Both the position numbers and the translations under genes were made by a program. A stretch of DNA of 64,000 nt from an uncultured delta proteobacterium (GTDB taxonomy: Bacteria; Myxococcota_A; Polyangia; Haliangiales; Haliangiaceae). The stretch covers positions 192,001 to 256,000 of the forward strand of contig CAWKDB010000002.1 of the NCBI GenBank assembly GCA_963848295.1, read 5' to 3'. Positions 14,842-57,136 of this stretch are shown piece after piece. The notes under the pieces were generated by a model. That model did no database searches. It had not been told where the DNA came from and saw only the letters and a list, made by a program, of their open reading frames with translations. Within the stretch, counting starts at the first letter, position 1, and every line of letters starts with the position of its first letter.

Positions 14842-15616
14842 CAAACAGGGTGAGGGCGAAGACGGCTACGAGCCGCGGCGGCCGCGCGCGCCCGGTGGCT
14901 CGATCGAGGTCGAGCTCGAGCCACAACACCAGCGGCCGCTGGGCTGGGCGGTGTTCGGGCTCATCGTCGGCGCGGTATTGATCTGGCAGTTCGGCGCCGT
15001 CGCGGTGTGGGGCGGGATCGTGCTCGTCGTGGTCGGCAGCTTCGGTGCGTGGGAGGCGGCGGTGTCGTACTTGCGGCCGGCTGGCTCGATCATCGTGTCG
15101 GAGCACGAGGTCGTATTGCCGCGCGGCCTGCACATGACCAAGCCGGTGACCGCGCCACCCGGTGCCGTGACCGCGGTGTACTTCCTGCGCAAGTCGGTCC
15201 CGTGGAATCGCGCGTCGCCGATCCTGATCGTCGAGATCGGCGGTCGCGCGATGGCGTTCCCGCGCGAGTGGTTCGCGTCGGAGGCCGATCAGAAGCACAT
15301 CGTGCACGCGCTCGTGCGCTTCCGCGAGGCGAACGCGAGCTCGGTCGCGCCCGACGGCAAGGTCGAGAGCGACGGGCCCGGCCTGCCCCCGGCCGGCAGC
15401 CGGGCCGAATGGGCCCGCGGTCCGATCGACGATGGTCGAGGCGCCGCGTTCGCCGAGATGGCCGCCGGCGCTGCGCTCGTCGTGCTCGGCGTCGTGATCA
15501 CGGTCGCCGCGTTGCCCACGTTCCTGACGGCCACGAAGGCTCAGTTCGTGGTCGCGTTCGCGCCGATCGCGGTCGGTGCGATGTTGTTCTGGCGCGGCGT
15601 CACCCGGCTCGGCTGA
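14777..15616 (+). CDS. Hypothetical membrane protein (about 4 TM) carrying the intragenic element
   Basis: Two N-terminal and two C-terminal hydrophobic helices; start uncertain because it overlaps the upstream gene. Confidence 0.65.
   Translation: MSSSTKSRPASPTSPEAGSETSKQGEGEDGYEPRRPRAPGGSIEVELEPQHQRPLGWAVFGLIVGAVLIWQFGAVAVWGGIVLVVVGSFGAWEAAVSYLRPAGSIIVSEHEVVLPRGLHMTKPVTAPPGAVTAVYFLRKSVPWNRASPILIVEIGGRAMAFPREWFASEADQKHIVHALVRFREANASSVAPDGKVESDGPGLPPAGSRAEWARGPIDDGRGAAFAEMAAGAALVVLGVVITVAALPTFLTATKAQFVVAFAPIAVGAMLFWRGVTRLG
15374..15429 (+). mobile_element. Intragenic double-hairpin element, copy 1
   Basis: GGGCCCGGCCTGCCCCCGGCCGGCAGCCGGGCCGAATGGGCCCGCGGTCCGATCGA; gapless 42/56 to the ribE copy; CGAC repeated 57 nt apart (15370-15373 and 15427-15430). 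Confidence 0.75.
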
Positions 15617-16766
15617 GTCGCAGCACGACCTCGACGTGCGAGGTCTGCGGCATCAAATCGAGGGGCCACGCCCGGTCGGCGCGATAGCCGGCGGCGACGA
15701 GGCGCTCGGCGTCGCGGGCCAGCGTCGCCGGATCGCACGACACGTAGACGATCGTGCGTGGCGCTGCGCGCACGATGCCCGCGATCGCTTCGGCGGCCCC
15801 GGTGCGCGGCGGGTCGAGCGCGATCGCATCGAACGATCGGCCGGCTGCGGCGAGCCGGTCGAGCACGGCGTCGGCGCGGCCGACCTCGAATCCCGCCGGC
15901 GGCCTCGCGGGCAGCGCGCCATCGCTCGGCGTGACCTCCCACCCGTCGCCGCGGAACGCGCGCGTGACGTTGCCCGCGCCGGCGTAGAGCTCGAGCAACC
16001 TGCCCGGGCCCGCGCCGAGCGCGGTCCGCGCGACCGCGACGAGCGCGCGATTGCCCGCGAGGCTCGCCTGCGCGAAGTCCCACGGCCCGCCCCACAACCC
16101 CGGCTCGAGCTCGATCACCGGCTCGCCGTGGGCCACGTCGCCAGCGATGACTCCGACGATGTCGGCCCGGCCGACGAGCTGCCCGGCCGCGCGCCATGGC
16201 TTCTCGATCCCGATCGCGACCTCGCCGCTCTCGCCGCGGACGACCGCGACCTCGCCGTCGGGGAGCGACGAGCCGAACAGCACCGCCATCGCCCGGTCGA
16301 GCCCGTGCTCGAGTTGGCCGCAGCTGGTCAGCCGGACGAGCTTGCGCGAGCCCGCCGCGTACAAACCGAGTACACCCCCCGCGACGTGAAAGCGCGCGCG
16401 CCGGCGCCAACCGTAAGGCGCGACCGGGTCCGCGATCGGCTCGATGACCAGCCCGTCGAGCTTGCGCAGCGCGCCGGCGACGATCGCGTGCTTCGCCGCG
16501 AGCTGAGCCGCGCGAGCGACGTGCTGCCACTGGCAGCCGCCGCAGCCTTCCGCGAAGTGCGGGCACGGCGGCACGACCCGCGATCGCGACGCCGCGACGA
16601 GCTCGACGACCTCGCCGCGCGCGAACGACGCCTTGGCCTTGCCGATCGCGACGCGTACGCGATCGCCGGGCGCGGTGCGGGGCACGAACACGACCCGACC
16701 TTCGCCATCGCGCGCGACGCCGTCGCCACCGGCCGCGAGCGCGGTGATGTCGAGCTCGGTGGTCAT
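15600..16766 (-). CDS. rlmD: TRAM-domain RNA m5U methyltransferase (RlmD/TrmA family)
   Basis: GGDGVAR, VFVPRTAPGD, CPHFAEGCGGCQWQH (Fe-S), LELYAGAG, LDPPRTG, YVSCDPATLARD, MPQTSHVE. Confidence 0.88.
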   Translation of the reverse strand: MTTELDITALAAGGDGVARDGEGRVVFVPRTAPGDRVRVAIGKAKASFARGEVVELVAASRSRVVPPCPHFAEGCGGCQWQHVARAAQLAAKHAIVAGALRKLDGLVIEPIADPVAPYGWRRRARFHVAGGVLGLYAAGSRKLVRLTSCGQLEHGLDRAMAVLFGSSLPDGEVAVVRGESGEVAIGIEKPWRAAGQLVGRADIVGVIAGDVAHGEPVIELEPGLWGGPWDFAQASLAGNRALVAVARTALGAGPGRLLELYAGAGNVTRAFRGDGWEVTPSDGALPARPPAGFEVGRADAVLDRLAAAGRSFDAIALDPPRTGAAEAIAGIVRAAPRTIVYVSCDPATLARDAERLVAAGYRADRAWPLDLMPQTSHVEVVLRLSRAG

Positions 16767-17515
16767 CGGTACGCGCCGCCCGGCGGCAGCGGCACGATCG
16801 GCGTCCCGCGGGGTGCGGCGAGCATGCGATCGGCGCGGCCGTTGCGCACCGCGATCTCGACGGTGCGCGCCGAGCCGACATACGCGACGAGCTCGCCGAG
16901 CGGCACGTCTTCGTACGTGCGCGCGAGCGGCAGCGCGCGACCCGCGATCGCGACCACGGCGCCTGCTTCGTCGCGCGGCAGGTCGGTGATGAGGTTGCCG
17001 TACGCGTCGATGTGCACGACCCGGCCCTCGCCCGCCGGCCGCGGCCCCCACGCGAGCGCGCCCTCGAGCGTCATGTCGGGCCCGATCTGATCGGGGTGCT
17101 TGCCGAGCGCGAGCGCTGCCCCGACCTGGGCGAAGATGTCGCGACCGTGGAACGTGGCGCTGATCTCGGGGGCGAGCATCGCGCGATTCTCGATCGCCCA
17201 CGCCCGTTCGATCGGCAGATAGCCGAACAACCCGTTGTCCGGGCCGACGTAGTAAGCACCCTCGGAGCGCACGATCGCGCCGCGGCGCGCCCCGCCGACG
17301 CCCGGATCGACGACCGCGACATGGATCGTGCCGGCGGGAAACTCGCGGCACGCGGTCGCGACCACCCACGCACCGTGCGCGATGTCGTGCGGCGGCACGT
17401 CGTGGGCGATGTCGATCACGCGCGCATCCGGAGCGAGCCGGATGACGACGCCCTTCATCGCGCCGACGTATCCGTCGCGTGTACCGAAATCGGTGGTCAG
17501 CGTGATGATCGGCAT
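16763..17515 (-). CDS. SAM hydroxide adenosyltransferase (DUF62; chlorinase/fluorinase family)
   Basis: [45 protein letters not shown] overlap with the methyltransferase. Confidence 0.92.
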
Positions 17516-17541
17516 CGCATCCAGAGGTAAGCATACAGCCG

Positions 17542-18246
17542 ATGAACAAGGTCTACCCGGACGCCGTGGCCGCCCTCGCCGACGTGACCGACGGAGTGAC
17601 GATCCTCGCCGGCGGCTTCGGGCTGTCCGGCAACCCCGAGAACTGCATCCGCGAGCTCGCGCGCAAGAAGGTCAACGGGCTGACGATCGTGTCGAACAAC
17701 TGCGGCACGACCGACCAGGGCCTCGGCATCTTGTTAGCGCAGGGCCAGGTCAAGAAGATGGTCTCGTCGTACGTCGGCGAGAACAAGGTGTTCGAGCAGC
17801 TGTTCCTGGCCGGCAAGCTCGAGGTCGAGCTCTGTCCGCAAGGCACGCTCGCCGAACGCCTGCGCGCGGGCGGCGCCGGGATCGAGGCGTTCTACACACC
17901 GACCGGCTACGGCACGAAGGTCGCCGACGGCAAGGAGACCCGCGAGCTCGGTGGCAAGCCCTGCGTGCTCGAGCACGCCATCCGCGGCGAGTTCGCGATC
18001 GTCAAGGCCTGGAAGGGCGACAAGTGGGGCAACCTGGTGTTCCGCAAGACGTCGCGCAACTTCAACCCGCTGTGTGCACAGGCCGGCAAGATCACGATCG
18101 TCGAGGTCGAACAGCTCGTCGAGGTCGGGGAGCTCGAGCCCGATCAGGTCCACCTGCCTTCGATCTACGTGCAGCGGATCTTCCAAGGCACCGACTACAA
18201 GAAACCGATCGAGCAGCGGACGGTAAGGAAGCGAGGTGCCGCGTGA
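17542..18246 (+). CDS. scoA: 3-oxoacid CoA-transferase subunit A
   Basis: [38 protein letters not shown]. Confidence 0.93.
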
Positions 18247-18902
18247 ACCGCCTCGATCGCGAGCAGATGGCGCGCCGAGTCGCGGCCGAGCTGTCCGATG
18301 GGTTCTACGTCAACCTCGGCATCGGCATGCCGACCCTCGTCGCGAACTTCATCGCGCCGGGCAAAGACATCGTGTTGCAGTCCGAGAACGGCCTCCTCGG
18401 CATCGGCCCGTTTCCCTACGAGGGCGACGAGGATCCGGATCTGATCAACGCGGGCAAGCAGACCGTCACGACGATCGCCGGCTCCGCGTTCTTCGATTCG
18501 GCGCAGTCGTTCGCGATGATCCGCGGCGGCCACGTCGACGTCAGCGTGCTCGGCGCGATGGAGGTCAGTCAATACGGCGACCTCGCGAACTGGATGATCC
18601 CGGGCAAGATGATCAAGGGCATGGGCGGCGCGATGGATCTCGTCGCCGGCAGCCGGCGAGTCATCGTCATGATGGAGCACACGGCGAAGGACGGCAGCTC
18701 GAAGATCTTGCGCGAGTGCTCGCTGCCGCTCACCGGCGTGCGCTGCGTCCATACGATCGTCACGGACCTCGCGGTGATCGACGTTGCAACGACCGGGCTG
18801 GTGCTGCGCGAACGCGCGCCCGGCGTCAGCGCCGACGACATCGCGAAGGCGACCGCCGCGCCGCTCACATGGACCGGCGACGTGCCCGAGATTCGCTGTT
18901 AG
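18243..18902 (+). CDS. scoB: 3-oxoacid CoA-transferase subunit B
   Basis: GTG overlapping the scoA stop; [15 protein letters not shown] (catalytic Glu), GMGGAMDL. Confidence 0.93.
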
Positions 18903-18908
18903 CGACGG

Positions 18909-21146
18909 CTACGACTTGCAGACCGGGCGCGGATCGAACGGGTCCTGGCCGCCCGGCGGCTGACACGCCGGCTGCTTGGGTTGCTTCGCCTGCTCGATCT
19001 GCTTCGGCTGGTTGGCGGTCGAGCTCGCGTGCTCGTGCCTCGTCGTGTTGTTGTGCGTCGGACTCGCTTTGTGCTCGGTGGTGCTCCGGTCGGGCGTGTG
19101 CTCCGGCACGTGGGTGGCAACGTGCTCCTGGCCGTGATCGACGACAGGCGGAGGCGCGACCGGCGTCGGTGCGGTCGGCACGGGCGCGGCCGCCTTCTTG
19201 AGCGGGATGTCCTTCGCGTAGTCTCCGGTCAGGTCGATCTTCGACGCGACCTCGACGTAGCCGTCGAGCTTGATCACGATCGGCGCCATCGTCTCGCCGG
19301 CTTCTTTGATCGTGGCTCCACGCCGGATCTTGGTGTCGAGCGGGGTCACGCCGACCTTCTTGCCGGCGATCAACACGTCGGCGCCGGGCGGATGCGAGAT
19401 CACGTGTAACGCGACGTAGTCATCGACTCCGGGCTCGTTGGTCGTCGGGGATGCAGGGGTCGCGTGGTCAGAGCCGACCGCGTTGTCGGGCGCGGCGACG
19501 ATCGACGCGGCATCCGCGGCGAACATCGCCGGTGTCTCGGAGCCGCGGCCGGTGAGCTTGACCGCGATCAGCGCGACCGCGCCGACGACCACGACGCCGA
19601 GCCCGATGAACAGCGCGCGGCGATTCGGTCGTAGGGTCGGCAGCTCTGTGCCGAGCCCCGAGGACGAGTCGATCTGCGGGAACGACGATTCGCTGCGCGC
19701 CGGCCCCGGGGCGCCGGCGTAGCCGTGCCTCGTGCTCGGAATCGCGGCGCCCGAGCCGGAGGGCGCCGTCGCGAACGCGCCTTGGGACCCGCTGGCCGGT
19801 AACGACAGCGGCTGCGTCCCGGCCGGTATCTGCGTCGGAATCGTGTCTGCGGCAACAGAGGCCGGCGGATACGTACGGCGGCTGAGCGACGGGTCGGAAG
19901 GCATCGCACCCGCCGGTGCGAGTGCCGCCGGCCGCATCGTCGGATACGACTTCGCGTTCCAGTCGGCGGCGTTCGGATCCTCGCGATCGGTGTCGTTGAG
20001 GCCGCGCGGCAGATCGAGCAGCGTCGGCTGCGCGAGCAAGTTGGCTTCGGCGTCGGCGCGCGCGATCGGCGGGAGCTCGGTCGGCAGCGGCCCGCGAATC
20101 GCGCGTTGTGCACCGCTGCCGCGACCGTCGGTCGACGAGATCGTGTTCTCCTTCGGCGGCATCACGGCGTTCATCCGGCCGGTGACGAGCCACGGCTCGG
20201 GGTGCTCGCCGAACATGTCGCGCATGAACCGGCCGAGCGACATCGTCGACAGCGACATCCGCGATGCGACCGCGAAGCTCTCGAGCGCTTCGAGCAGGAA
20301 CGTCGCGCTCTGATAGCGCTGCGAGGCGTCGATCGCGAGCGCCTTCATGACGATCGCCTCGAGCGCTTGCGGATAGCCCTGGACCAGACGCGTCGGCCGT
20401 ACGACGTCGCCGGTGACGATGCGATGCATCGTGTCGAAGTCGCTGTCGGCGCGGAAGCACCGGTGCTGGGTCGTGACCTCGTAGAGGATGATCCCGAGCG
20501 AGAACACGTCGCTGCGCTTGTCGACGTCGCGACCGCGGCATTGCTCGGGCGCCATGTAGGCGAACTTGCCCTTGATGATGCCGCTCTGGGTCTCGACCGA
20601 GCGCTGCGTCGCCTTCGCGATGCCGAAATCGAGCAGCTTGACCGCGCCGTCGTACCCGATCATCAAGTTCGACGGCGACACGTCGCGGTGCACGATGCCG
20701 AGCGGCGTGCCGTCCGGTGCGCGCCGTTCGTGCGCGTGGTTGAGCCCCGACGCGGCGCCGGCGACGATCGTCAGCGCGAGCTCGAGCGGCACCCGCGTGC
20801 CTTGGCTGCCGGCCTTCGCGAGCAACGCGCGCAGGTCCTGGCCGTGCACGTACTCCATCGCGAGGTAGTGGATGCCGGCGTCCTCGCCGACCTCGAACAC
20901 CTGCGCGACGTTCTGGTGGTTGAGCGAAGCGGCGAGCCGCGCTTCGTCCAGGAACATCTGGACCGCGGTCTGATCGTTCGCGCGTTCCGGTGTGATCAGC
21001 TTGAGTACAACGTGGCGTTCGAAGCTACCGATTCCGGTAGAACGTCCGATGTAGATCCGCGCCATGCCGCCCGCCGCGAGCGGCATGAGCAGTTCGTATT
21101 TGCCGAGGCGCGTGGGAATTCCCCCCGCCGGAGCAGCGGCTGGCAC
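18909..21146 (-). CDS. Membrane Ser/Thr protein kinase with extracellular PEGA domain
   Basis: LAAGGMA, HRDVSPSN, DFGIAK, YMAPEQ; Pro-rich linker; TM; VISHPPGADVLIAG...GVTPL (PEGA). Start may extend to 21182. Confidence 0.92.
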   Translation of the reverse strand: MPAAAPAGGIPTRLGKYELLMPLAAGGMARIYIGRSTGIGSFERHVVLKLITPERANDQTAVQMFLDEARLAASLNHQNVAQVFEVGEDAGIHYLAMEYVHGQDLRALLAKAGSQGTRVPLELALTIVAGAASGLNHAHERRAPDGTPLGIVHRDVSPSNLMIGYDGAVKLLDFGIAKATQRSVETQSGIIKGKFAYMAPEQCRGRDVDKRSDVFSLGIILYEVTTQHRCFRADSDFDTMHRIVTGDVVRPTRLVQGYPQALEAIVMKALAIDASQRYQSATFLLEALESFAVASRMSLSTMSLGRFMRDMFGEHPEPWLVTGRMNAVMPPKENTISSTDGRGSGAQRAIRGPLPTELPPIARADAEANLLAQPTLLDLPRGLNDTDREDPNAADWNAKSYPTMRPAALAPAGAMPSDPSLSRRTYPPASVAADTIPTQIPAGTQPLSLPASGSQGAFATAPSGSGAAIPSTRHGYAGAPGPARSESSFPQIDSSSGLGTELPTLRPNRRALFIGLGVVVVGAVALIAVKLTGRGSETPAMFAADAASIVAAPDNAVGSDHATPASPTTNEPGVDDYVALHVISHPPGADVLIAGKKVGVTPLDTKIRRGATIKEAGETMAPIVIKLDGYVEVASKIDLTGDYAKDIPLKKAAAPVPTAPTPVAPPPVVDHGQEHVATHVPEHTPDRSTTEHKASPTHNNTTRHEHASSTANQPKQIEQAKQPKQPACQPPGGQDPFDPRPVCKS

Positions 21147-21254
21147 GTTATCGATCGTTCCATCGCGTGCGCACCAAGTCAAGCAATGCCGCGGAACCTC
21201 AGTGCTAACCGAATAGATCTTCGCTCGATGTAGGGCGAGGTCGTAGTCGCGCGA

Positions 21255-22646
21255 TCACTTTCCGGCGAGCATCATGTGGGATACTCGGAACGTCGGCGCC
21301 GCGGTCGAGCTGCGCAGCTCGAGGTCGTCGGCCACCGCATCGATTCGCTTGAGGATCTGGTCGAAGTTCGCCGCGATCGTGACCTCGCTGACCGGGAACG
21401 TCAGCTCGCCGCCCTCGATCCAGAAGCCTTGGGCGCCGCGCGAGAAGTCGCCGGTGACCGGATTGAAGCCGAACCCGAGCAGCTGCGTCACGTAGAGGCC
21501 ACGCGGAGTCTGCCGCAGCAAGTCCGAACGCGTCATCGCGCCCTTGGCCATGATTAGGTTCGTCGTCGTCGGGCCGGGGCTGCCGCCGACGCCCCGCCCG
21601 GCCGATCCGGTCGATGCGCGACCGAGCTTGTTCGCGCTGTAGACGTCGCACAACACCGGCGCGAGCACGCCGCGATCGAGCACCGAGTTCTTGCGGGTCG
21701 CCAGGCCGTCGCCGTCGAACGGCTTCGAGCCCGGTGCGCGCGCGATCAGCGGATCGTCGGTGATCGTGACGAGCGGCGACGCGATCAGCTCGCCCTCTTT
21801 GCCGACGAGGTAGGTCGACTTGCGCCAGAACGCCGAGCCGTTCGCGACCGAGAACAGCGTACCGACGATCGCACGCGCGACCTCGGGATCGAACACGACC
21901 GCGCACTCCTGGGTGTCGACCTTGCGCGAGCCGAGCGTCGCGACGGTGCGCCGCGCGGCCTCGATGCCGACTTGCTCGGCCGGCTCGAGCGACGCGAGGA
22001 ACCGCGACGACGAGTACCAGAACCCGTTGCGCTTCTTCGGATTGCCCGGCTCGCTGTCGTCATCGCACAGCGGCTCGACGACGATCGACGCATAGCTACC
22101 GCGATAGCCGCCGGAGAACCCCCCCGACGTCGCGAAGGCGGTGCCGCCGATCACGCGCGACCACGTGCCGCCCTCGGAGTTGGTCACGCGCTTGTCGTGC
22201 TTGCGCGCCGCGGCCTCGCCCGCGATCGCTTGCTCGAGCGCCCACGCCGCATCGACTTCGGCGACCGCGGGGTCGTAGAGATCGAGCTCGGGCAGCGAGG
22301 TCGCGAGCAGCTTCGGATCCGGTGGCAGCGCGCATTCGTCGGGCTCGGCGAGCTCGGCGAGCGTCACGGTCTCGCGGCACAGCGCCTCGAGCGCGTCGCG
22401 GCGCAGATCGCTCGTGTAGGTCGTCGCTCGGCGCGCGCCGCGGATGACGCGCAAGCCGAGCGCGCGGCTACCGGCCTCTTGCACGAGCTCGGGCTCGCCG
22501 AGCCGGACCTTCGCGGTCAGCTCGCTGCCGTCGCGGACGAGCGCCTCGACATGATCGGCGCCGGCTTTCTTCGCGAGCTCGACCGCGAGCTCGGCGAGGC
22601 CGCGCAGCTCTTTGATCGTCGCTTCGGTTACCTGTGCTGCAGACAT
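21255..22646 (-). CDS. pmbA: TldE/PmbA family protein
   Basis: ALGLRV, FDPEVA, PFDGDG, NPVTGDFS, EVTIAAN; no HExxxH. Confidence 0.9.
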   Translation of the reverse strand: MSAAQVTEATIKELRGLAELAVELAKKAGADHVEALVRDGSELTAKVRLGEPELVQEAGSRALGLRVIRGARRATTYTSDLRRDALEALCRETVTLAELAEPDECALPPDPKLLATSLPELDLYDPAVAEVDAAWALEQAIAGEAAARKHDKRVTNSEGGTWSRVIGGTAFATSGGFSGGYRGSYASIVVEPLCDDDSEPGNPKKRNGFWYSSSRFLASLEPAEQVGIEAARRTVATLGSRKVDTQECAVVFDPEVARAIVGTLFSVANGSAFWRKSTYLVGKEGELIASPLVTITDDPLIARAPGSKPFDGDGLATRKNSVLDRGVLAPVLCDVYSANKLGRASTGSAGRGVGGSPGPTTTNLIMAKGAMTRSDLLRQTPRGLYVTQLLGFGFNPVTGDFSRGAQGFWIEGGELTFPVSEVTIAANFDQILKRIDAVADDLELRSSTAAPTFRVSHMMLAGK

Positions 22647-22652
22647 CGACTT

Positions 22653-40188: not shown

Positions 40189-41375
40189 TCAGGCGCCGGT
40201 CTTCGCACGCGCGGCGGTGGCGCGCGTCGGAATCGGCACGCGCTCGACGACATCGATCCCGAAGCCCTCGAGGCCTGGGATCTTGCGATCGCTCCACATC
40301 ATCAGCCGGATCTTCTTGCAGCCGAGATCCGCGAGCACCTGCGCGCCCAGCCCGAAGTCGCGCAGCGCTTCGCTCGACGCCGCGCGCGACTCCTTCGCGA
40401 TGTCAGTGAAGCTCGGCCGCACGACCTCGCGCTGGAGCACGAGCCGATCGAACGAATTCGCGAGCCGCATCCGGCCGCGATTGACGACGTAGAGCAACAC
40501 GCCGAGCCCGGCGGCATCGATCGCCTCGAGCGCGGCGGTGAGATCGGGCCGGAGCGAGAACGGATCGCCGAGCGGATCCATCGCCGCGACCCGCACGAGC
40601 ACGGTCTGGCCCGCGGCCGATGCCGCCGCGACATCGCCGCGCACGAGCGCGAGGTACTCGGTGTCTTCGACCTCGGTGTCGTAGTAATGCGCGACGAACG
40701 GCTCGCCCGGCGCCGAGCCCTCCCGGCCGCAGCGTGCCGGTGCCGCGGCAGCGCACGATTCGCTCGTGCTGCAGGCGATACGCGATCATGTCGGCGACCG
40801 ACAGCACCATCACGTGGTGGCGTTGGCCGAACGCTTCGAGCTCCGGCATTCGGGCCATCTCGCCGTCCTCGCGCATGATCTCGCAGATCACGCCGGCGGG
40901 CTTGCAGCCCCGCCATGCGCGCGAGGTCGACCGAGCCTTCGGTCTGGCCGGTGCGGACGAGCACGCCGCCCTTGCGCGCGCGCAGCGGGAACACGTGGCC
41001 GGGAGACACGATCTTGTGCGGCCCGGTGTCGTCGGCGATCGCGGCGCGGATCGTCGTCGCGCGATCGCGAGCCGAGATGCCCGTCGACACGCCGTGCCGC
41101 GCTTCGATCGACACCGTGAACGCGGTGCCGAGCGAGGCTTGGTTGTCGCGCACCATCATCGGCAGCTCGAGCTTGTCGATCATCGCGTCGTCCATCGCGA
41201 GGCAGATCAGGCCCCGCGCGTGGGTCGCCATGAAGTTGATGTGCTCGGGCGTGACGAGCTCGGCGGCGAACACGAGATCGCCTTCGTTCTCGCGATCTTC
41301 GTCGTCGACGAGGATCACCATCTTGCCGGCGCGGATCTCGTCGAGGGCACGCGCGACGCGTTCGAGGGCGGTCAT
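40189..41375 (-). CDS. ribB: DHBP synthase fused to a degenerate GTP cyclohydrolase II domain (RibBX); apparent frameshifts near 40910 and 40720
   Basis: [38 protein letters not shown] | [13 protein letters not shown] | [15 protein letters not shown]; pieces lie in three frames. Confidence 0.88.
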
Positions 41376-42029
41376 GACTGGCCTCCAGCAACTAGTTTTT
41401 CGACGTGCTTCGCGAGGATGTCGGTCTCGAGGTTGACGCGGTCGCCGATCGCGAGCGCGCCGAGCGTCGTGTGATCGCGGGTGTGCGGGATGATCGCGAC
41501 CGAGAACGTCTCGCGATCGACCGCGTTGACGGTGAGCGACACGCCGGCGATCGCGATCGAGCCCTTCTCGACGATGTGGCGGAGCAGCGCCGCCGGCGCG
41601 CGCACGCCGAGCACGAGGTTCGCGCCGAGATCGCGGCGCACCGCGAGCTCGCCGGTGCCGTCGATGTGGCCGGTCACCCAGTGACCGCCGAGCCGATCGC
41701 CGAGCCGCAGCGCGCGCTCGAGGTTGAGCTTTCCGCCGACGCGGGCGTGGCCGAGCGTCGTGCAGCGCGAGCGTCTCGGCGCCGGCGAGCACGGTGTAGC
41801 TGTCACGGGCTATTGAACCGCGCCGCCCTTCGGCGCCGCTGCCGGCCGGGGGCAAGCCCCGACCGTCGATCGCCGTGACCGTGAGGCACGCGCCGTCGTG
41901 GCAGATCGATTCGCCGATCGCGAGGTCGGCGAGCGCGAACGCCGCCGGCCGGATCGCGAGCACGAGCGCGTCGCTACGGCGATCCGCGCGCGCGATCGTG
42001 CCGACGTCAGCGACGAGCCCGGTGAACAT
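41372..42029 (-). CDS. ribE: Riboflavin synthase (alpha chain); apparent frameshift near 41765; carries the 19-aa element insert
   Basis: MFTGLV, GACLTV | [42 protein letters not shown]. Confidence 0.92.
41809..41864 (-). mobile_element. Intragenic double-hairpin element, copy 2 (in ribE)
   Basis: GGTCGGGGCTTGCCCCCGGCCGGCAGCGGCGCCGAAGGGCGGCGCGGTTCAATAGC; encodes [19 protein letters not shown] between TAID and RDSYTV. Confidence 0.8.
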
Positions 42030-46521: not shown

Positions 46522-46529
46522 GTGCTCTC

Positions 46530-48610: not shown

Positions 48611-48653
48611 GATCGCGCGCAACCGGCGGCGCGACCGGCCGATACGCCGGCCC

Positions 48654-49766
48654 ATGGGATATGGACACGCTCACAAGCCGAAACCCGCCGACCACCACGC
48701 CAAGCCCGCAGCGCACTACGATGCGCCGATGCCGAAGCCGAAGCTGATCGGCGACCCGTACCTGGACAACGGCCTCGTCTGCGACCGGCCGCTTAGCCAG
48801 CGCCCGTCGATCGCGGTCTGCGACTTGTTGGCGGCGACGCGTGCCCGCCTCGTTGGCGAGCTTGACCAGCGGGCCGGAGCTGCCAAGACCAACTACCAGC
48901 TCGCTCTCGTGGAGAAACGCGTCGATCTGCTGCTCAGCAAGAGTGACGATTGGGGGCTTCTCGGCGACCTCGCCTTCGGCGCCATTGCCGCGCTGTTGAT
49001 CGCGTGCAGCGATGGACTGCTGGCGCCGGCGGTGGAGGTCGCCGGTGGCGCCGAGGGCGCCACGCTCGCCGCGAAGGCCGCAGCGCCGGCGGAGGTTGCG
49101 ACAGTCTCGGAGCACATCTCGAACGCCGGCCCCGCGGTCGTCAAGTCGCTCATCAGAAGCGGAACCACAGCGATGAGGGCACCGCTCAAGGACAAGCTCC
49201 GGACGCTGCGCCCCGACGTGGCCGCGAAGACGCAATTCGTCGACGGATTGATCGACGCTGCAGGCCAGCTGTTCAATGGCATCACGAGCGCGGTGGAGGC
49301 AAAGGGCGATGATGCGGCGTTGCTGGCCTGGTATGCTGCCCTGGCCGACCGCAACGTGACCGTCTCCATCTTCGCGGCACAGATCGACGAGCTCGTTGCG
49401 CGCTTCTCCGCCAACCGCCTCGACCAGCTCGGGCGCGATACGTTGCCCACGTCGGATGCCCATCCGCGCGAGCTCAGCCGCGAGGTCGTGCGGATTCGCA
49501 ACGGCAAGCAGGTTCGCTACGCGGTGATCCAGTTCGCCGACCGTCTCCCGCCAGGACTGACGATCGGCGAGGTGCTCGGCATGGCCAAGCCCGTACCGCC
49601 GGGCCCGCCGCTCGCGTTCTTTCTCAACTGGGTCGACGCCGACTTCGTCGACGAGGGGGAGTCGATCCAGATGGCGACGTTCGGCACGATGCGCACCCTC
49701 GATGTCGACCACCCCGTGATTCGCGACCTGCCCGAGATCGCAGATTTCGCCGAGGAACACCGATGA
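48654..49766 (+). CDS. Hypothetical protein with His/Pro-rich N-terminus and hydrophobic helical segment
   Basis: 370-aa ORF; ATGA-coupled to the next gene. Confidence 0.7.
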   Translation: MGYGHAHKPKPADHHAKPAAHYDAPMPKPKLIGDPYLDNGLVCDRPLSQRPSIAVCDLLAATRARLVGELDQRAGAAKTNYQLALVEKRVDLLLSKSDDWGLLGDLAFGAIAALLIACSDGLLAPAVEVAGGAEGATLAAKAAAPAEVATVSEHISNAGPAVVKSLIRSGTTAMRAPLKDKLRTLRPDVAAKTQFVDGLIDAAGQLFNGITSAVEAKGDDAALLAWYAALADRNVTVSIFAAQIDELVARFSANRLDQLGRDTLPTSDAHPRELSREVVRIRNGKQVRYAVIQFADRLPPGLTIGEVLGMAKPVPPGPPLAFFLNWVDADFVDEGESIQMATFGTMRTLDVDHPVIRDLPEIADFAEEHR

Positions 49767-50155
49767 AGACCACCGTGATCAGCCTCGTAGCCGCGGCGGT
49801 GGCGCTCGCCGCCGCGATCACCACCGAAGAGGTTCGGCTTCAGCGTGCCGACGCTCGGATCGAGACGCTCGTCGCGGAGCGCACCGAGTATCGGATCCTG
49901 TGCTCGTCGATCCGGTACACCGCCCGCACCGCTTCGCAGAGACTCAACGCATCTGCGTTCGCGCAGCTCGACATGATCGGGATCTTCGCCGGGCTATGCG
50001 GGGCCGATCGCGAGCGCGCTCACCGAGCCGCCGAGCGCGCCGGCGACTGCGCCGCGATCAGCCACGACTGGGCGTGCGCTCGGCAAGCCGCCACGGAACT
50101 AGTCGACATGATGCCGGAGGACTATCCCGAGCTCGACCCGGCGTTCGACCACTAG
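49763..50155 (+). CDS. Hypothetical small exported Cys-containing protein
   Basis: Signal-like N-terminus, 4 Cys, ATGA overlap. Confidence 0.65.
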   Translation: MKTTVISLVAAAVALAAAITTEEVRLQRADARIETLVAERTEYRILCSSIRYTARTASQRLNASAFAQLDMIGIFAGLCGADRERAHRAAERAGDCAAISHDWACARQAATELVDMMPEDYPELDPAFDH

Positions 50156-51201
50156 CCCAACGCAGCGGCCAGCTGCTCGGTGAGCCCGCGCTCCGCGAAG
50201 CTCGCCGCCGAGCGGATCGCACTCGCGATCGCGGTGGCGTCGCTCCGGCCATGGGCGATCAGCACGGGCTTGGTCACGCCCGCGAGCAGCGCGCCGCCGA
50301 CCTCGGTGTAGTCGATCCGCTTCGCGAGGCCGCGCAGCGCCGGTGCGACGAGCGCCGCGCCGAGGCGGGCCCGGGGCGTGCGCTCGAGCTCTTGGCGGAC
50401 GAGGCCGAACAAGCCCTCGGCGATGCCCTCGCACGTCTTCAACACGACGTTGCCGGTAAAGCCATCGGTCGCGACGACATCGACCACGCCGCGAAACAGG
50501 TCGCTGCCCTCGACGTAGCCGACGTACTGGAAGGCGCCGGTTAGCGATCGAACCGCGCCGTCCTGCGGCGGCGCTGCTCGCCGGTCGTTCGCCCCGGCCA
50601 GCGCCGCGAGCAGTGCGTGGGCCTCGCGCGTGACCGCGGTGCCTTTGCCGGGCTCGCCGCCGTTCGACAACAAGCCGACCCGCGGGCGCGAATGCCCGTG
50701 GACGACGCGATCGTAGGCCGCGGCGAGCACGCCGAACTGCGCGAGCATCGCCGGCTTCGGCTCGACGTTCGCGCCGGCATCGCACAACACGAGCGGGCCC
50801 GACGGCGTCGGCAGCACGGTCACGATCGCGGGTCGCTCGACGCCGGGCAGGCGACCGAGCACGAACAGCGCGGTCGCGAGCATCGCCCCGCTGTTGCCGG
50901 CGCCGATCATCGCGTCGCCGCGCCCGGCCGCCAGCTCGGCGACCGCGATCCGCATCGACGAGTCGGGCTTGGCGCGGAACGCTTGCCCGGGGTGGTCGGT
51001 CATCGTGACGACTTGGCTCGCCGGCACGATCGCGAGCCGCGCACGATCCTCAGCGCTCGCGCCGGCGCGCACGAGCTCGGCTTCGATCCGCGCCGCGTCG
51101 CCGACGAGCGAAACGTCGATGCCGCCACCCGCGCGCAGCGCACCTAGCACCTCGGGCGCGGGTGCCCGATCACTTCCCATCGCGTCGACGACGACGCGCA
51201 T
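50152..51201 (-). CDS. plsX: Phosphate acyltransferase PlsX with a 19-aa element insert
   Basis: VDAMGSD, AGNSGA, ERPAI, DAGAN, GYVEG, TDGFTGNVVLK, HGRS. Confidence 0.95.
   Translation of the reverse strand: MRVVVDAMGSDRAPAPEVLGALRAGGGIDVSLVGDAARIEAELVRAGASAEDRARLAIVPASQVVTMTDHPGQAFRAKPDSSMRIAVAELAAGRGDAMIGAGNSGAMLATALFVLGRLPGVERPAIVTVLPTPSGPLVLCDAGANVEPKPAMLAQFGVLAAAYDRVVHGHSRPRVGLLSNGGEPGKGTAVTREAHALLAALAGANDRRAAPPQDGAVRSLTGAFQYVGYVEGSDLFRGVVDVVATDGFTGNVVLKTCEGIAEGLFGLVRQELERTPRARLGAALVAPALRGLAKRIDYTEVGGALLAGVTKPVLIAHGRSDATAIASAIRSAASFAERGLTEQLAAALG
50544..50599 (-). mobile_element. Intragenic double-hairpin element, copy 3 (in plsX)
   Basis: GGCCGGGGCGAACGACCGGCGAGCAGCGCCGCCGCAGGACGGCGCGGTTCGATCGC; gapless 43/56 to the ribE copy; CGCT repeated 57 nt apart. 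Confidence 0.75.
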
Positions 51202-51212
51202 GGCGACCCACC

Positions 51213-51413
51213 CTATTCTTCAGCCGACTTCTTCGCGACGATGGTCTCGCCGCGGTACTGGCCGCAGCTCATGCACACGCGGTGAGTGATCCGCGGCGCA
51301 CCGCAGTTCGGGCAGGCTTGAACCGCCATGTGGTTCGCGCCTGACTTCTTGGACCACGCCGAGCGCTGTTGGCGAGTACGGGTGGGTCCACGACGACGTT
51401 TCTGCAGTGCCAT
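51213..51413 (-). CDS. rpmF: 50S ribosomal protein L32 (zinc-ribbon form)
   Basis: MALQKRR...CPNCG...[17 protein letters not shown]. Confidence 0.95.
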
Positions 51414-51443
51414 AAGAAGACTCCGGGCGGCCTTTCTGCCAGT

Positions 51444-52061
51444 TCAGGAAGGTAATTTCAAGCCCTTGAGCGCGGCCAGGCGGGGGTCGATGGGCTTCTC
51501 GCACGCGCAGGTCTGTGTATTTCGGTCGATTCCGCACTGCGGGCATAGGCCCTTGCAGTCTTCGCGACACAGCGGCGCGTAGGGTACGGCGAGCACGAAT
51601 TGCTCTCGAAACAGCGGCTCGAGGTCGATCGCCTCGCCGTCGTAGGGGAACACGTCGAGGTCGCCGTCGCCGAGCTCGGCGCCGTCCTCGTCGTCATCGA
51701 CCTTATCTTTGTCCTTGTGCTTCGGCGTCGCCGGCTCGATCTCGGTCGGCAGCTCGCCGCGCGGCAGGAACGTCACGCGCAGGGTCTCGTCGATCGGCAG
51801 CGTGACCGGGCCGACACACCGGCTGCACGCGACCACGAGATGGCCGTGGAACTCGCCCGAGACGAACACCGTCTTGTCGTCGCCGTACAGATCGAGCTCG
51901 GCGACGCCCTGGCCGGCCTCGGGATCCGGTTCGGGTGCGCCGAGCGCGTCGCGCATCGGCATGCCGCGCAGCCAGTCGGAGACCTGGGTCGGCGTGACCT
52001 CGAACCGCCGATGGGTCGGCAGGTCGCGCAGCAACACCGAGAAGGGTGCTTCCTTCGCCAT
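51444..52061 (-). CDS. yceD: YceD/DUF177 family protein
   Basis: CSRC, IDLEPLFRE, PLCREDCKGLCPQCG, DPRLAALK; directly upstream of rpmF. Confidence 0.9.
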   Translation of the reverse strand: MAKEAPFSVLLRDLPTHRRFEVTPTQVSDWLRGMPMRDALGAPEPDPEAGQGVAELDLYGDDKTVFVSGEFHGHLVVACSRCVGPVTLPIDETLRVTFLPRGELPTEIEPATPKHKDKDKVDDDEDGAELGDGDLDVFPYDGEAIDLEPLFREQFVLAVPYAPLCREDCKGLCPQCGIDRNTQTCACEKPIDPRLAALKGLKLPS

Positions 52062-52121
52062 GGCGGCTGGGGAATATAGGTGCGCGATCGCCGCTGTCAA
52101 GCTGCGGTTAGAATGTTCCGT

Positions 52122-52559
52122 ATGAGCCAGCCGCCGATGTGGGTCGTACGCAGTCCCGTGCGATCGTCGTTGGGATACGGGATCCTTGTCGCGCTCAAAC
52201 GCGGGGCTCGGTCAATGGGACGCGGCAATCGAGTACGGCGCACGCTGGAGGTGACAACCAAAGCGCCGGCGGCCGAGGCGTACGCCAAGATCGAAGCGAT
52301 CGGTAGGCCCGTATCGGATCGACGATCGCGACGCCGAAGCGGGCCGCATGCTCGATGCTGTCGTCGCATCTACGCTGGTGATCTTGGGGGTTCATCTACC
52401 CAGTGGTCGTTAGATCGCGGCGCCGAGCGGCTCGCGGATCACTATCGGGATCCAGTCGAAGGTCTTCCAATACGGTTTTTTCGCCAACCGTGCCCATCGC
52501 CCGCTGTGCGACGCGAGCTGGAGGCGCTGCTGTCGGTGCCGGCGGCGCGAGTCGCGTAG
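52122..52559 (+). pseudogene. Small membrane-anchored protein gene with several apparent frameshifts (or sequencing errors)
   Basis: TAGAAT 7 nt before ATG; protein-like fragments in different frames (PYRIDDRD; SWGFIYPVVV; GSRITIGIQSKVFQYG; RELEALLSVPAARVA). Confidence 0.45.
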
Positions 52560-54145
52560 TGCGCTGGCTCGCGGCGCTCGCGTGCTGTGCGGCGTGTAGC
52601 GACGCCTCGACCGCACCGATCACGTTCGGATCGATCGGCCCGCTGTCGGGCGACGCCGGCAAGGGCGGGTTCCGGTTCGGCGTCGCGACCGCCGCGACCC
52701 AGATCGAGGATATGAACCCGAACACCGACTGGTACGTGTGGACCGAGCCCACCGCGCAAGGCGGCCTCGGCAAGGACACGTTCGTCGGCGACGCGGTCGA
52801 CGGCTTCACCGACGACCTCGGCGATGTCGGCCTGATCGCCGACATGGGGCTCGACAGCTACCGGTTCTCGATCGAGTGGGCTCGGATCGAGCCGCAAAAA
52901 GGCGTGATCGACGAAGCCGCGATCGCGCACTACCGCGCCGAGCTGCAAGCGCTGCACGACATGGGCATCCGTCCGCTCGTCACCGTGCTGCACTTCTCGG
53001 TGCCGGTGTGGGTCGGCGATCCGCGCGCGATCAGCTGTCCCGACGGCCCGACCGACACGAACCTGTGCGGGTTCGGCTCGGCCGGCGGCCCGCAGATCAT
53101 CGCCGCCGCGGCCGCCCACGCGACGTTGCTCGCGCAGCGGTTCGGCGATCTCGTCGACGAATGGGGCACGGTCAACGAGCCGATCAATTACCTGATCGCG
53201 GCTTACGGCGCCGGCACGTTCCCACCGGGCAAGGGCCTGGTGTTCGATCTGCCGAGCCTGGTCGCGGTGCTGCGCGACTACCTCGCGATCCACGCCGCGA
53301 TCTACACCGCGATCAAAGCGAACGACACGATCGATGCCGACGGCGACGGTATCGCGGCGTCGGTCGGGTTCTCGATGTCGGTCGCGGACTGGGAGCCCGC
53401 GCGCGGCAACAAGCCGTCGACCGATCCGGACGATATCGCCGCGCGCGATCGCCTGGTCTACATCTTCCACTACCTGTGGGTCGACGCCGTGGTGCAAGGC
53501 GGGCTCGACACCGACTTCGACGGCACGATCGACGAACCGCACCCCGAGTGGAAGGGCACCGTCGATTGGCTCGGCTTGCAGTACTACCTGCGCGGTGGCG
53601 TCACGAGCGCGCCCGCCGCATTCCCGCCGCCGATCTCGTTGACGCCGTGCGTGCTCGGCTTCGATCTCGGCGCGTGCCTGCCGGCGCCGGATCCGACGTA
53701 TTGCGTCGGCCAGATGGGCTACGAGTTCTACCCGCCGGCGCTTCGCGACTTGCTCGGCGCGTTCGCGAAGCGCTACCCGGGGCTGCCGCTGGTCGTCACC
53801 GAGTCCGGCATCGCGAGCGATGTCGGCACGCGGCGCGCGGAGCAGATCGTGCGCACGCTCGAGGCGATCGCGGCGGCTCGCGACAGCGACGGCGTCGACG
53901 TCCGCGGGTTCTACGAGTGGAGCCTGACCGACAACTTCGAGTGGGCGCAGGGGTTCGCGCCGCATTTCGGGCTGTACTCGGTCGACGACACGACCTACGC
54001 GCGGACCGCGACCGAGGGGGCGACCGTCCTCGGCGCGATCGCGAGCTCGCGCACGGTGACGAAGGCCCAGCGCGCGCAGTACGGCGGCACCGGGCCGATG
54101 ACCGCGGACGCGGTGGCGACCGACCCATTCTGCGCCGCGCAGTGA
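52559..54145 (+). CDS. Glycoside hydrolase family 1, lipoprotein-type
   Basis: FGVATAATQIE, YRFSIEWARIEP, TVNEP (acid/base), VTESG (nucleophile), WSLTDNFEWAQG; signal peptide ending CAAC. Confidence 0.9.
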   Translation: MRWLAALACCAACSDASTAPITFGSIGPLSGDAGKGGFRFGVATAATQIEDMNPNTDWYVWTEPTAQGGLGKDTFVGDAVDGFTDDLGDVGLIADMGLDSYRFSIEWARIEPQKGVIDEAAIAHYRAELQALHDMGIRPLVTVLHFSVPVWVGDPRAISCPDGPTDTNLCGFGSAGGPQIIAAAAAHATLLAQRFGDLVDEWGTVNEPINYLIAAYGAGTFPPGKGLVFDLPSLVAVLRDYLAIHAAIYTAIKANDTIDADGDGIAASVGFSMSVADWEPARGNKPSTDPDDIAARDRLVYIFHYLWVDAVVQGGLDTDFDGTIDEPHPEWKGTVDWLGLQYYLRGGVTSAPAAFPPPISLTPCVLGFDLGACLPAPDPTYCVGQMGYEFYPPALRDLLGAFAKRYPGLPLVVTESGIASDVGTRRAEQIVRTLEAIAAARDSDGVDVRGFYEWSLTDNFEWAQGFAPHFGLYSVDDTTYARTATEGATVLGAIASSRTVTKAQRAQYGGTGPMTADAVATDPFCAAQ

Positions 54146-54168
54146 CCGCCGCATAGTACGATCGGATC

Positions 54169-55041
54169 GTGCGGGCCGCGTGTGTCGTCATCGTCGGGCT
54201 CGCCGCGTGTAACTTCACGTCGAACGCCGGGGGTGGCGGCGGCGGTGGCGGTGGGCCGGCGGACGCGCCTCGCGACACGAGCACGGTCGACAGCGATGGC
54301 GATGGCGTGCCGGACAACGTCGACAACTGTCCGCACCAGGCGAACCCGGATCAGCACGACGAGGATCGCGATGGGATCGGCGACGTCTGCGACCTGTGCC
54401 CGCAGGTCGCGGCGCCCCAGATCGACAGCGATGGCGACGGCATCGGCGACGATTGCGATCCGCACCCGATGGTGGCCGGCGACGTGCTCGTCACGTTCGA
54501 ACCGTTCGCGACGCCAGGCGGGATCCCGGCCGACGCGACGCTCGTGGTCGGCACCGCGAGCGACTGGACGGTCGCGAACGACGAGCTGTCGAACACCGGT
54601 CTCGATCTCACCGACGTGCTGTTATTCGATGCCGGCACGCCGAACCAGACGATCGACGCGGGCGTGACCGTCACCGGGATCGAGGCGTCCGCGACCTCGA
54701 CCATCGCGATCATGGCGGTCACCGATTCGGAGAGCACCGCCGACAACTTCTTCCTGTGCCTCGCGGAGACGAACAGTTTCCCGAACTACGCGCTGTACTA
54801 CGATGCCGGAGGCATCTTCACCGCGCTCGATTTCGACGACGTGACCACGGCGACGTTCCCGGGCGTGTTCCGGTTGCGGTCGCGGATCGACGCGAACGGC
54901 GAGTCGTGCGCGATCGCTGCCTCGCCTGCGCCGCAGGCGCTGACGTCCGTCTCGATCCCGGTCGGCAACACGTACGTCGGGCTCCGCTTGCGCGAGGTCG
55001 TCGTGTCGATCCAATACGTCGCGGTCTACAGCTCGCCTTAG
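54169..55041 (+). CDS. Lipoprotein with thrombospondin type-3 Ca-binding repeats
   Basis: Lipobox LAAC; poly-Gly; DSDGDGVPDNVDNCP, DEDRDGIGDVCDLCP, DSDGDGIGDDCDP. Confidence 0.85.
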   Translation: MRAACVVIVGLAACNFTSNAGGGGGGGGGPADAPRDTSTVDSDGDGVPDNVDNCPHQANPDQHDEDRDGIGDVCDLCPQVAAPQIDSDGDGIGDDCDPHPMVAGDVLVTFEPFATPGGIPADATLVVGTASDWTVANDELSNTGLDLTDVLLFDAGTPNQTIDAGVTVTGIEASATSTIAIMAVTDSESTADNFFLCLAETNSFPNYALYYDAGGIFTALDFDDVTTATFPGVFRLRSRIDANGESCAIAASPAPQALTSVSIPVGNTYVGLRLREVVVSIQYVAVYSSP

Positions 55042-55823
55042 CGACGCGGCATCGCGGCGGAGAGCTGTTCGACCAGCGCGCGAAGCCCAGGCACGCCGGC
55101 GGTCGCGAGCCGATCGACGAGCGCCGAGCCGACGACGACGCCATCCGCAACTCGCGCGAACCGCGCGGCATCGGCCGCGGTGCTAATGCCGAAGCCGATC
55201 GCGACGGGCGCTCCGGCGGCGAGTCGGATCTGCGCGAGTCGCACCGGATCGACCGCGGCGGCCGCGCGCGCGCCGGTCACGCCGGTCATCGAGATGTAGT
55301 AGACGAACGGCGCCGTGAAGTCCGAGAGGCGGGCGATGCGTTCGGGCGTCGACGTCGGCGCGACGAGCGGCACGACGCCGACCCCGCGCGCGGCGAGCGG
55401 GTTCGCGAGCTCGGCGAGCTCGTCAATCGGCAGGTCGACGGTCAGCACCGCGTCGATGCCGGATGCCGCCGCGCGTTCGGCGAACGCCGCGACGCCGAGC
55501 GCGAAGATCGGGTTGTAGTAGCCGAACAAGACGATCGCGACGCCCTCGCCTCGCGCGCGCAGCTCGGCGACCGCAGCGAGCGCACCGGCCAACGTGCCAC
55601 CCGCGGCGAGCGCACGCTCCATCGCGGCCTGGATCGACGGGCCGTCCGCCGACGGATCGGAGAATGGCACACCGATCTCGATGACATCGGCGCCCGCTCG
55701 CGCCGCGGCGACGACCGCCTCGATCGACGTCTGCGGATCGGGGTCGCCGAACGTGAGGTACGCGACGAGCGCGGCGCGATGCTCGGTGGCGGCGCGCTCG
55801 AACGCCGCGCGCAAGCGGTTCAC
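55038..55823 (-). CDS. trpA: Tryptophan synthase alpha chain
   Basis: [40 protein letters not shown]. Confidence 0.96.
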
Positions 55824-57136
55824 GCGCCCCCTTGCTTCGCCGCGACCGTGGTCACCGCATCGATCGGCGCGCCAGCCCGCTTCGCCGCTATCGTCGTCAT
55901 GTCTTTATCGCCGCGGCCGGACAGCCCGACGATCACGACGCCGCCGTTGACCGCGCGCGCGACCTCCCCGAGCGCCGCGACTGCATGCGCGGTCTCGAGC
56001 GCGCAGATGATACCTTCGCTGCGCGCGAGGCGTTCGAGCGCCGCGAGCGCTTCGGCGTCGGTGCGCGCGATGTACGTGACCGCGCCAGTGTCCTTCCAAT
56101 GTGCGTGCTCGGGCCCGACGCCGGGATAGTCGAGGCCGGCGCTGATCGAGTGCGCGTGCGCGATCTGACCATCGGGAGTCTGCAACACGTAGCTCTTGCT
56201 GCCGTGGAGCACGCCGACCGCGCCAGCGCCGAGCGTCGCGGCGTGGCGCCCGGTCGCGATGCCGTCGCCCGCGGCCTCGACGCCGAAGCAGCGGACCTCG
56301 CCGATCATCGGCGCGAACAGCCCCGCCGCATTGGAGCCACCGCCGACGCACGCGACGAGCGCGGACGGCAACGCTCCGGTCGCGGCGATCACCTGCGCGC
56401 GCGCTTCGCGGCCGATCACCGACTGCAGATCGCGCACCAGCCATGGATACGGGTGTGGGCCGGCGACCGAGCCGATCAGGTAGAACGTGTCGCCGACGTT
56501 GGTCACCCAATCGCGCAGCGCCTCGTTCATCGCGTCCTTGAGCGTGCGCGTGCCGCTGTGCACCGCGTGTACCCTCGCGCCGAGCAGCCTCATGCGCTCG
56601 ACGTTGAGCGCCTGGCGCACGACATCTTCGGCGCCCATGTAGATCTCGCACGGCAAGCCGAACAGCGCGGCGACCGTCGCGGTGGCGACGCCGTGTTGAC
56701 CCGCGCCGGTCTCGGCGATCAGGCGGCGCTTGCCCATCCGGCGCGCGAGCACCGCCTGGCCGATGCAGTTGTTGATCTTGTGCGCGCCGGTGTGATTGAG
56801 ATCCTCGCGCTTGAGGTACACGTCGGCACCGACCTCGGCCGATAGCCGGCGCGCGCGATACAGCGGCGATGGCCGGCCCACGTAGTCGACGAGCAGCTGA
56901 TCGACCTCGCCCCAGAACCCAACATCCGCCCGTGCCGCTCGCCACGCGGCTTCGAGCTCGCCGATCGCCGGCATCAACGTCTCGGCGACGTATTGTCCGC
57001 CGTAAGGACCGAACCGGCCCTGTACCGGCTCGGGCAGCCGTACGATTTGCTCGACGGTCGGGGCTGGCCCCCGGCCGTCAGCGCCGCCGGATGGCGGTCC
57101 AGTTCTATCGGCGGTCGCCACGCCCGTGCGTACCAC
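55820..57136 (-). CDS. trpB: Tryptophan synthase beta chain with element-derived N-terminal segment
   Basis: [60 protein letters not shown]. Confidence 0.96.
57056..57111 (+). mobile_element. Intragenic double-hairpin element, copy 4 (antisense, in the trpB 5' end)
   Basis: GGTCGGGGCTGGCCCCCGGCCGTCAGCGCCGCCGGATGGCGGTCCAGTTCTATCGG; gapless 45/56 to the ribE copy; TCGACGGTCG and TCGGCGGTCG lie 57 nt apart. Confidence 0.78.

Follow-up and report, generated by a model that had tools for sequence, protein, structure and literature searches.

A mobile 57-nt element of two hairpins inserted in frame in genes of an uncultured Haliangiaceae bacterium

In-frame insertion of small palindromic repeats into bacterial genes is known from repetitive extragenic palindromes (REPs), which have been reported within repair genes, helicases and tRNA synthetases; the same account counts the Rickettsia palindromic elements RPE-4 and RPE-6 among the REPs (PMC3733652, Di Nocera et al. 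2013; this and the other published accounts are cited from extracts of their text). CGTC-tagged REPs are defined there by a terminal CGTC motif, a stem of 8-9 bp and a CCA tail (PMC3733652), and T2 and G4 of the tetranucleotide GTAG select the C|A cut made by TnpA-REP (PMC8266576). We analysed a stretch of 64,000 nucleotides of an uncultured delta proteobacterium of the family Haliangiaceae (assembly GCA_963848295.1, contig CAWKDB010000002.1, positions 192,001 to 256,000; hereafter the window). A reading of its letters made without database searches, the sequence-only reading, had recognised four copies of a 57-nt element (19 codons) inserted in genes, and had taken the element to be non-autonomous and conserved at the level of nucleic acid. 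That characterisation holds. The four segments lie where they had been placed, three of them being identical to the copy in ribE at 42, 43 and 45 of 56 bases, and the reading frames and peptides quoted for them are correct. The element is real and mobile.

The element resembles GTAG- and CGTC-tagged REPs, which are also small palindromes lying in frame in open reading frames and encode 20-30 residues, or more where they are clustered. GCAG or TCAG stands before its second hairpin, and the variants listed for REPs include GYAG (PMC3733652). However, REPs are described in that account as 20-40 bp long, mostly extragenic and predominantly single or arranged as inverted dimers, head-to-tail copies being rare, whereas the element is a 57-nt unit of two unlike hairpins and a spacer, is arranged head-to-tail where it is repeated and is intragenic at 64% of loci. 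Its consensus has neither the CGTC motif nor the CCA tail, and among 81 loci encoding Y1 or Y2 transposases none has a RAYT gene flanked by it, unlike GTAG-tagged REPs, where the RAYT gene is flanked by the repeats (PMC3733652). The element works like REP-type repeats, yet stands apart from them in unit structure, in location and in the lack of a linked RAYT.

The analogy that the sequence-only reading drew with Rickettsia palindromic elements (RPE-1, -4 and -6) is a good one, judged by their description: these selfish palindromes, too, lie in housekeeping genes, which remain in frame across them and read them in several frames. No likeness of sequence between the two is expected. To our knowledge no transposase is known for them. 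Their host is AT-rich and intracellular whereas that of the element is free-living with 68% GC, and the element adds a defined target motif, tandem arrays and lengths that are compensated across subfamilies. Substrates of REPtrons and of TnpA-REP, as far as the extracts describe them, likewise have a short hairpin with a tetranucleotide at its base (PMC8266576, PMC6006769); they differ from the element, for which no cognate tnpA-REP was found and whose mobile unit has defined, fixed ends. With the HUH-type IS200/IS605 and IS91 elements, which form single-stranded circles, it shares a tetranucleotide-type target, the absence of duplication and subterminal hairpins (PMC6006769, PMC13181058). It differs from them in lacking coding capacity and replication-strand bias, and in that six other genomes rich in copies have no Y2 transposase match. 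We consider it probable that it is a non-autonomous element that moves as single-stranded DNA, inserts site-specifically and has had its length filtered for reading frame.

Copy number, empty sites and target

The genome was searched with an nhmmer profile built from the four window copies and iterated once, at a cut-off of E<=0.1. In 7.78 Mb this returned 188 copies at 163 loci, compared to none in the reversed genome, as had been expected from four copies in one window. A covariance model whose training set included the four window copies matched only these in the window (E<=1.6e-7), the next match having an E value of 0.22. The element has no match in Rfam, and no myxobacterial description of it was found in listings of the open-access literature. 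Eleven of the 163 loci are head-to-tail arrays of 2-5 units, nine of them with a strict 57-nt period. Arrays grow locally, since units within an array are near-identical (0-1 base difference in 22 of 36 pairs) while dispersed copies differ from their nearest relative at 2-19 of 57 positions, with no identical pair.

The boundaries of the element were determined by comparison with a sister genome (G112), which is about 90% identical to this one. Among 68 G112 loci, 21 correspond to sites that in this genome are shorter by exactly 57 nt, and at 10 both genomes carry the element. A further 13 lack an orthologous site here and 7 are cut off by contig edges; the other 17 are considered below. The clean 57-nt empty sites anticipated by the sequence-only reading are thus found at these 21 loci, as well as for argS and plsX (see below). 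What is inserted is a block of exactly 57 nt, and the site that receives it is of the T-C-G-A type. The consensus of the empty sites is T-C-G-A, with 18 of the 21 within one mismatch of TCGA and 8 exact. As far as alignment can place it, the crossover lies inside TCGA, with no finer placement, because the empty site follows the left flank through position -1 and the right flank from approximately position 4.

The four-base repeats seen around two of the window copies had been taken for copy-specific target duplications flanking a mobile core of 53 bp. This part of the sequence-only reading has to be abandoned. Positions 3 and 60 agree in 59 of 86 loci, compared to 58.1 expected, and position 4 belongs to hairpin 1, where it covaries with position 26. 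The most conserved dinucleotide at the junctions is CG (99 and 98% at the left, 94 and 97% at the right). A T precedes CGA in 99% of right ends compared to 63% of left ends, so that the right T is part of the element. The flanking 4-mers are therefore a fixed junction motif, and the element's own end recreates the TCGA-like target site. A duplication of 2-3 bp, of the invariant CG or CGA, may nevertheless take place. Insertion at a short motif with no copy-specific duplication is the behaviour of IS200/IS605.

These junctions bear on the possibility that the element is a classical miniature inverted-repeat transposable element, moved by a DDE transposase and duplicating a short invariant target (CG or CGA). 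CGA does stand at both ends, where duplication of an invariant target is indistinguishable from shared ends, and positions 4 and 61 agree in 45 of 86 loci (37.7 expected, p=0.03). However, there is no terminal inverted repeat besides the palindromic TCGA, the T preceding CGA is asymmetric between the ends, the agreement of positions 3 and 60 reveals no duplication that follows the target, and eleven loci are head-to-tail arrays. We regard this origin as very unlikely.

Two hairpins maintained by compensatory change

The consensus consists of CGAY, hairpin 1 (positions 2-28), AG, hairpin 2 (positions 30-49) and GGTTNGAT, followed by CGA, and the unit can be written 5'-CGAY-hairpin 1-(G/T)CAG-hairpin 2-GGTTNGAT-3'. 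In the ribE copy, hairpin 1 (unit positions 2-28), whose stem is variable, occupies 41841..41867 of the window on the minus strand, and the GCAG tetranucleotide together with hairpin 2 (unit positions 27-49), whose stem is conserved, occupies 41820..41842 on the same strand. The highest mutual information is found between pairing partners (4:26, 6:24, 8:22, 9:21, 10:20, 32:47 and 34:45). For 68 copies drawn from many genomes, whose relatedness was not controlled for, the covariation score of the two-hairpin fold is 0.301 compared to 0.127 for shuffled data, none of 500 shuffles scoring as high, and sliding the structure along the alignment gives at most 0.103. Compensatory change maintains both hairpins.

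Hairpin 2 is closed by c-GNA(T/G/C)-g (cGNABg) in 84 of 88 copies, with GNRA in a single one, and hairpin 1 by CNNG in 85 of 88; variants with a GNA triloop were recovered by a model built without them. The tetranucleotide at the foot of hairpin 2 is GCAG in 61 and TCAG in 18 of the 88 copies, and its first three bases pair within hairpin 1 too. GTAG occurs at this position in 12 matches from 5 of 138 genomes, and GAAG in 54-nt types. Some subfamilies have in hairpin 1 the AA/GC internal loop of E. coli REPs. DNA loops of the GNA and GNAB types are described as folding cooperatively when a C-G pair closes them (PMC2275088), and both cGNABg and gCNNGc are named as stable DNA tetraloops in the reference list of that paper. 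Such DNA-type loops, present on one strand, point to single-stranded DNA, and suggest that the element is recognised in this form on one strand.

The alternative at the RNA level is that the element spreads through RNA and a reverse transcriptase, or that it is spliced out or bypassed in the transcript. The stems often contain G-T pairs (in 15 of 88 copies at 32:47, for instance) and the genome has four reverse-transcriptase matches, as an RNA route would allow. However, the loops are GNAB or GNA and not GNRA, no reverse transcriptase adjoins a copy, and 54 of 87 intragenic loci are antisense, so that the structured strand is absent from the mRNA. Splicing would moreover make lengths in multiples of three needless. 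An RNA route is accordingly given a slighter chance than a DDE transposase.

Insertions in genes and unit length

Genes were called with our own hexamer model. Of 135 strong loci, 87 (64%) lie inside genes, 15 at gene boundaries and 33 between genes, compared to 87% of TCGAY sites being genic (p=3e-11). A stricter test of the flanks scored 63 of 163 loci as genic, compared to 1647 of 3000 random places. Genic insertions are thus common yet depleted. The 87 intragenic loci are read mainly in frames antisense-0 (47), sense-2 (21) and sense-1 (11), with 8 in others. The sequence-only reading had remarked that the window copies are read in three frames; the frames are as quoted, but their use mostly follows the codon phase of TCGAY. 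Over and above this there is an antisense excess (the 54 of 87 loci, p=0.005). Copy length deviates by a non-multiple of three in none of 103 copies inside genes compared to 9 of 57 outside, a comparison that is partly circular.

The hosts include housekeeping genes. NCBIfam names 15 of 20 chosen host genes, among them era, argS, EF-G, recG, a uvrD-like helicase, two Lhr-type helicases, sbcD and both cysG halves; argS and era are the sole matches in the genome. The argS gene carries five units, that is 95 residues (5 x 19), and the G112 protein continues without the 95. One Lhr-type helicase gene (G000:C2:116226-120704) has three independent insertions and the second a two-unit array. Each cysG half has one copy, common to G112.

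In the window, copy 1 (15370..15426, plus strand, the 57-nt unit being counted from the C of the left CGA) lies in frame in the gene of a hypothetical protein that Pfam does not match (14741..15616, plus strand), within an extension of the C terminus. The extension is missing from four of five orthologues, and the G112 site is 48 nt shorter, not 57. Copy 2 (41812..41868, minus strand) is in frame in the riboflavin synthase gene ribE (41372..42029, minus strand; the only match in the genome), and is common to G112. This gene has a +1 frameshift near 41764, about 48 nt beyond the element; G112 has the same insert in an intact gene. The frameshift is probably an assembly error and is not caused by the element. 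Copy 3 (50547..50603, minus strand) is in frame in plsX (50152..51201, minus strand). Exactly 19 residues are lacking at the insert in 21 of 28 orthologues, the other 7 being shorter by 16-18, and none of the 28 carries the element. By sequence alignment the insert falls at a loop position, where the alignment to solved PlsX chains breaks. Copy 4 (57052..57108, plus strand) is antisense and in frame in trpB (55820..57136, minus strand; the only match in the genome), after codon 3 counted from the probable ancestral start, a GTG at 57121. The position after codon 3 follows from the start obtained without the unit, which matches that of G112. The gene upstream of trpB (57140-58417) has no Pfam match, and G112 instead has a different gene end directly before trpB, which we take to be trpF-like from its motif. 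A rearrangement, as judged from this comparison, adjoins the trpB copy.

Copies common to both genomes were used to look for constraint. In six orthologous pairs, 31 of 342 bases differ within the element, compared to 86 of 720 in the flanks. That shared copies and their flanks drift at about the same rate speaks against a host function, and the encoded peptide would be a tolerated passenger. A DNA site beneficial to the host (for protein binding, termination or chromosome organisation) and kept by selection would account for the conservation of hairpin 2 across the genus and for some intergenic subfamilies that supply a ribosome-binding site and start codon. Such selection is, however, hard to reconcile with this drift, with loci that are mostly lineage-specific (21 empty compared to 10 shared) and with the absence of any match from 34 of 85 same-genus genomes, and we rank it as the least probable of the explanations considered.

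The covariance model matches 51 of these 85 same-genus genomes and none of 55 from other genera of the order (the tallies include the unpublished genomes G010 and G075 as rows), and the hairpin-2 pattern was found in 39 of 90 same-genus genomes. In a scan of one genome per species, 67 of 80 titled loci among the matches listed are titled Kofleriaceae or Deltaproteobacteria. Complete two-hairpin units also occur in three records titled Acidobacteriota (L138, L164 and L170), which may reflect bin contamination or transfer.

Unit length was surveyed in 333 collected copies, 197 of them with measurable length; the reversed-sequence control gave 2 copies. Copies with a left CG junction measure 51, 54, 57 or 60 nt in 146 of 172 cases, across six architectures, whereas copies with other junctions have a length divisible by three in 8 of 25. 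The 53-nt calls are triloop copies in 9 of 10 cases, with ends apparently mis-placed. Lengths of 51 and 54 nt are reached through a shorter hairpin 1, 57 nt through a GNA triloop with a longer spacer or through a shorter stem 2, and 60 nt through a five-base loop. In other genomes, 39 of 51 arrays have a tandem period divisible by three. Of 250 CG-junction copies, 88 were scored as lying in frame within a gene, compared to 5 of 62 others. Together these data suggest that length is selected for reading frame, the contrast between junction classes being the best evidence, though the subfamilies are related. The idea that lengths other than multiples of three are confined to low-copy genomes was rejected, as the high-copy genomes G016, G020 and G101 contain such copies.

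Six GTAG-type copies (L473, L474, L477, L478, L480 and L481, from G102, G103 and G078) sit at ATGA stop-start overlaps, and copies of this type often end in a GGAGG motif followed by ATG, by which they seem to restore a ribosome-binding site to the gene downstream. Covariation between guide and target in these copies was not clean.

The mobilising enzyme and the meaning of the family

In the mechanism that we favour, the folded single-stranded DNA, on the strand as written, would be recognised by a nuclease acting in trans. An HUH enzyme is the foremost candidate, with about an even chance of being the right one; it would fit the absence of a duplication, the shortness of the target, the DNA-type loops on one strand and the GCAG that stands at the base of hairpin 2. 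Cleavage within TCGA at each end would release the unit, which would then be joined into a further TCGA site, and arrays would arise from joining at the unit's own end or from hairpin-assisted slippage. With about 87% of TCGAY sites genic, spread would be confined to lineages with a unit length divisible by three, a filter that would explain the lengths 51, 54, 57 and 60. Extrapolated to GCAG, the published TnpA-REP rule (PMC8266576) would predict a C|G cut matching the conserved CG at both junctions. It fails for the GAAG-type 54-nt copies and is unclear for the GTAG type. A C|G cut chosen by the tetranucleotide is a hypothesis, given the GAAG-type failure and the 2:28 pairing within hairpin 1.

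Candidate mobilisers were sought near the copies. Y1 transposases are represented in this genome by 9 Pfam matches and 6 found with our own profile, the nearest lying 1.7 kb from a copy. None is flanked by copies, and Y1 is present in 87 of 90 same-genus genomes; Y1 or RAYT was therefore rejected as a linked mobiliser, a near-universal gene being unable to discriminate. G000 and G112 share one syntenic Y1 gene, which nothing links to the element. IS91-type Y2 was rejected too: six high-copy genomes (G112, G072, G081, G068, G094 and G085) have no match, and the Y2 match of this genome has no element nearby. An autonomous parent with split ends was sought and not found, 16 left-half and 1 right-half matches lying outside known loci compared to 7 and 0 in the control, and no two of them enclosing a gene. 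A lone hairpin 2 was found a single time outside the known loci. Viral contigs gave 0 matches, phages none and plasmids one weak partial match only.

Several Y1 and IS91-type loci were recorded in their own right. A weak element-like fold (L080:1780-1862, G072, E=0.04) lies inside a Y1 coding region and is probably due to chance. A multi-copy, RAYT-like Y1 family (L001-L009; for example G000:C10:3806671-3807414, C2:329455-330669 and C10:3657361-3658149), most copies of which share an upstream stretch of about 150-250 bp with inverted repeats, forms a mobile family of its own, and 88 of 90 same-genus genomes hold relatives. A divergent Y1 gene (G000:C10:1101369-1102325) lies between its own terminal repeats, like the class flanked by terminal inverted repeats, and two head-to-head, partly broken IS91-type transposase frames stand beside an integrase at G000:C10:52000-54550.

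A site-specific recombinase of the IS110, tyrosine or serine type could instead recombine a 57-bp circle with a chromosomal TCGA through a shared core. The circle junction would resemble the target, arrays would follow naturally and no strand bias would be expected, and the genome has 15 tyrosine-recombinase matches. However, this 85%-complete genome has no match to an IS110 transposase and no integrase adjoins a copy, tyrosine recombinases, like reverse transcriptases, having been rejected as mobilisers on this ground. Furthermore, an enzyme acting on double strands has no need of covarying hairpins or of loops of the one-strand DNA type. Double-strand recombinases do not require hairpin folds, the attC sites of integrons being the exception. 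We consider a recombinase unlikely.

Several observations weigh against movement as single-stranded DNA with selection for frame. Of the 68 G112 loci, 17 differ from this genome by lengths other than 57 nt. No transposase adjoins any copy in this genome, as the sequence-only reading had found for the window, nor is any among the recurrent neighbours of copies in other genomes. The 81 Y1/Y2 loci, of about 3 kb each and sampled from more than 800 Y1 matches in the genus, are free of the element bar the one match with E=0.04, and no Y1 match was obtained in G110, a 98%-complete genome with 34 element matches. Unlike IS608, the element shows no bias towards either replication strand (70 compared to 65 loci, with replichores assigned from GC skew). 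As no dispersed copies are identical, current spread is not demonstrated. Copies and genomes are related by descent, so that the counts overstate independence; the gene calls come from our own model, and an insert causing a frameshift would drop out of the intragenic score. A variant of the single-strand mechanism, in which the mover is an unrecognised or host-encoded single-strand nuclease and not a resident RAYT or insertion sequence, goes with a codon-common target, scarless exit and repeated convergence on multiples of three; we give it a minor but appreciable chance.

The hosts are uncultured, and the general phenomenon of palindromes lying in frame within genes is familiar from REPs and Rickettsia palindromic elements. 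The question that the family addresses is how REP- or RPE-like repeats spread, and whether their in-frame length is selected or accidental. It provides a testable case, with exact ends, a target motif and dozens of filled and empty pairs between sister species; its subfamilies reach 51, 54, 57 and 60 nt by different structural routes, unlike those that are intergenic. The copies further mark many sites at which housekeeping proteins seem able to accommodate an insert of 19 residues, and up to 95 in the sole argS. Were the enzyme found, an inserter that acts in frame, site-specifically and without leaving a scar would be useful. If the reading in terms of a single-strand nuclease is true, the family would be a natural and ongoing generator of loop insertions in proteins.

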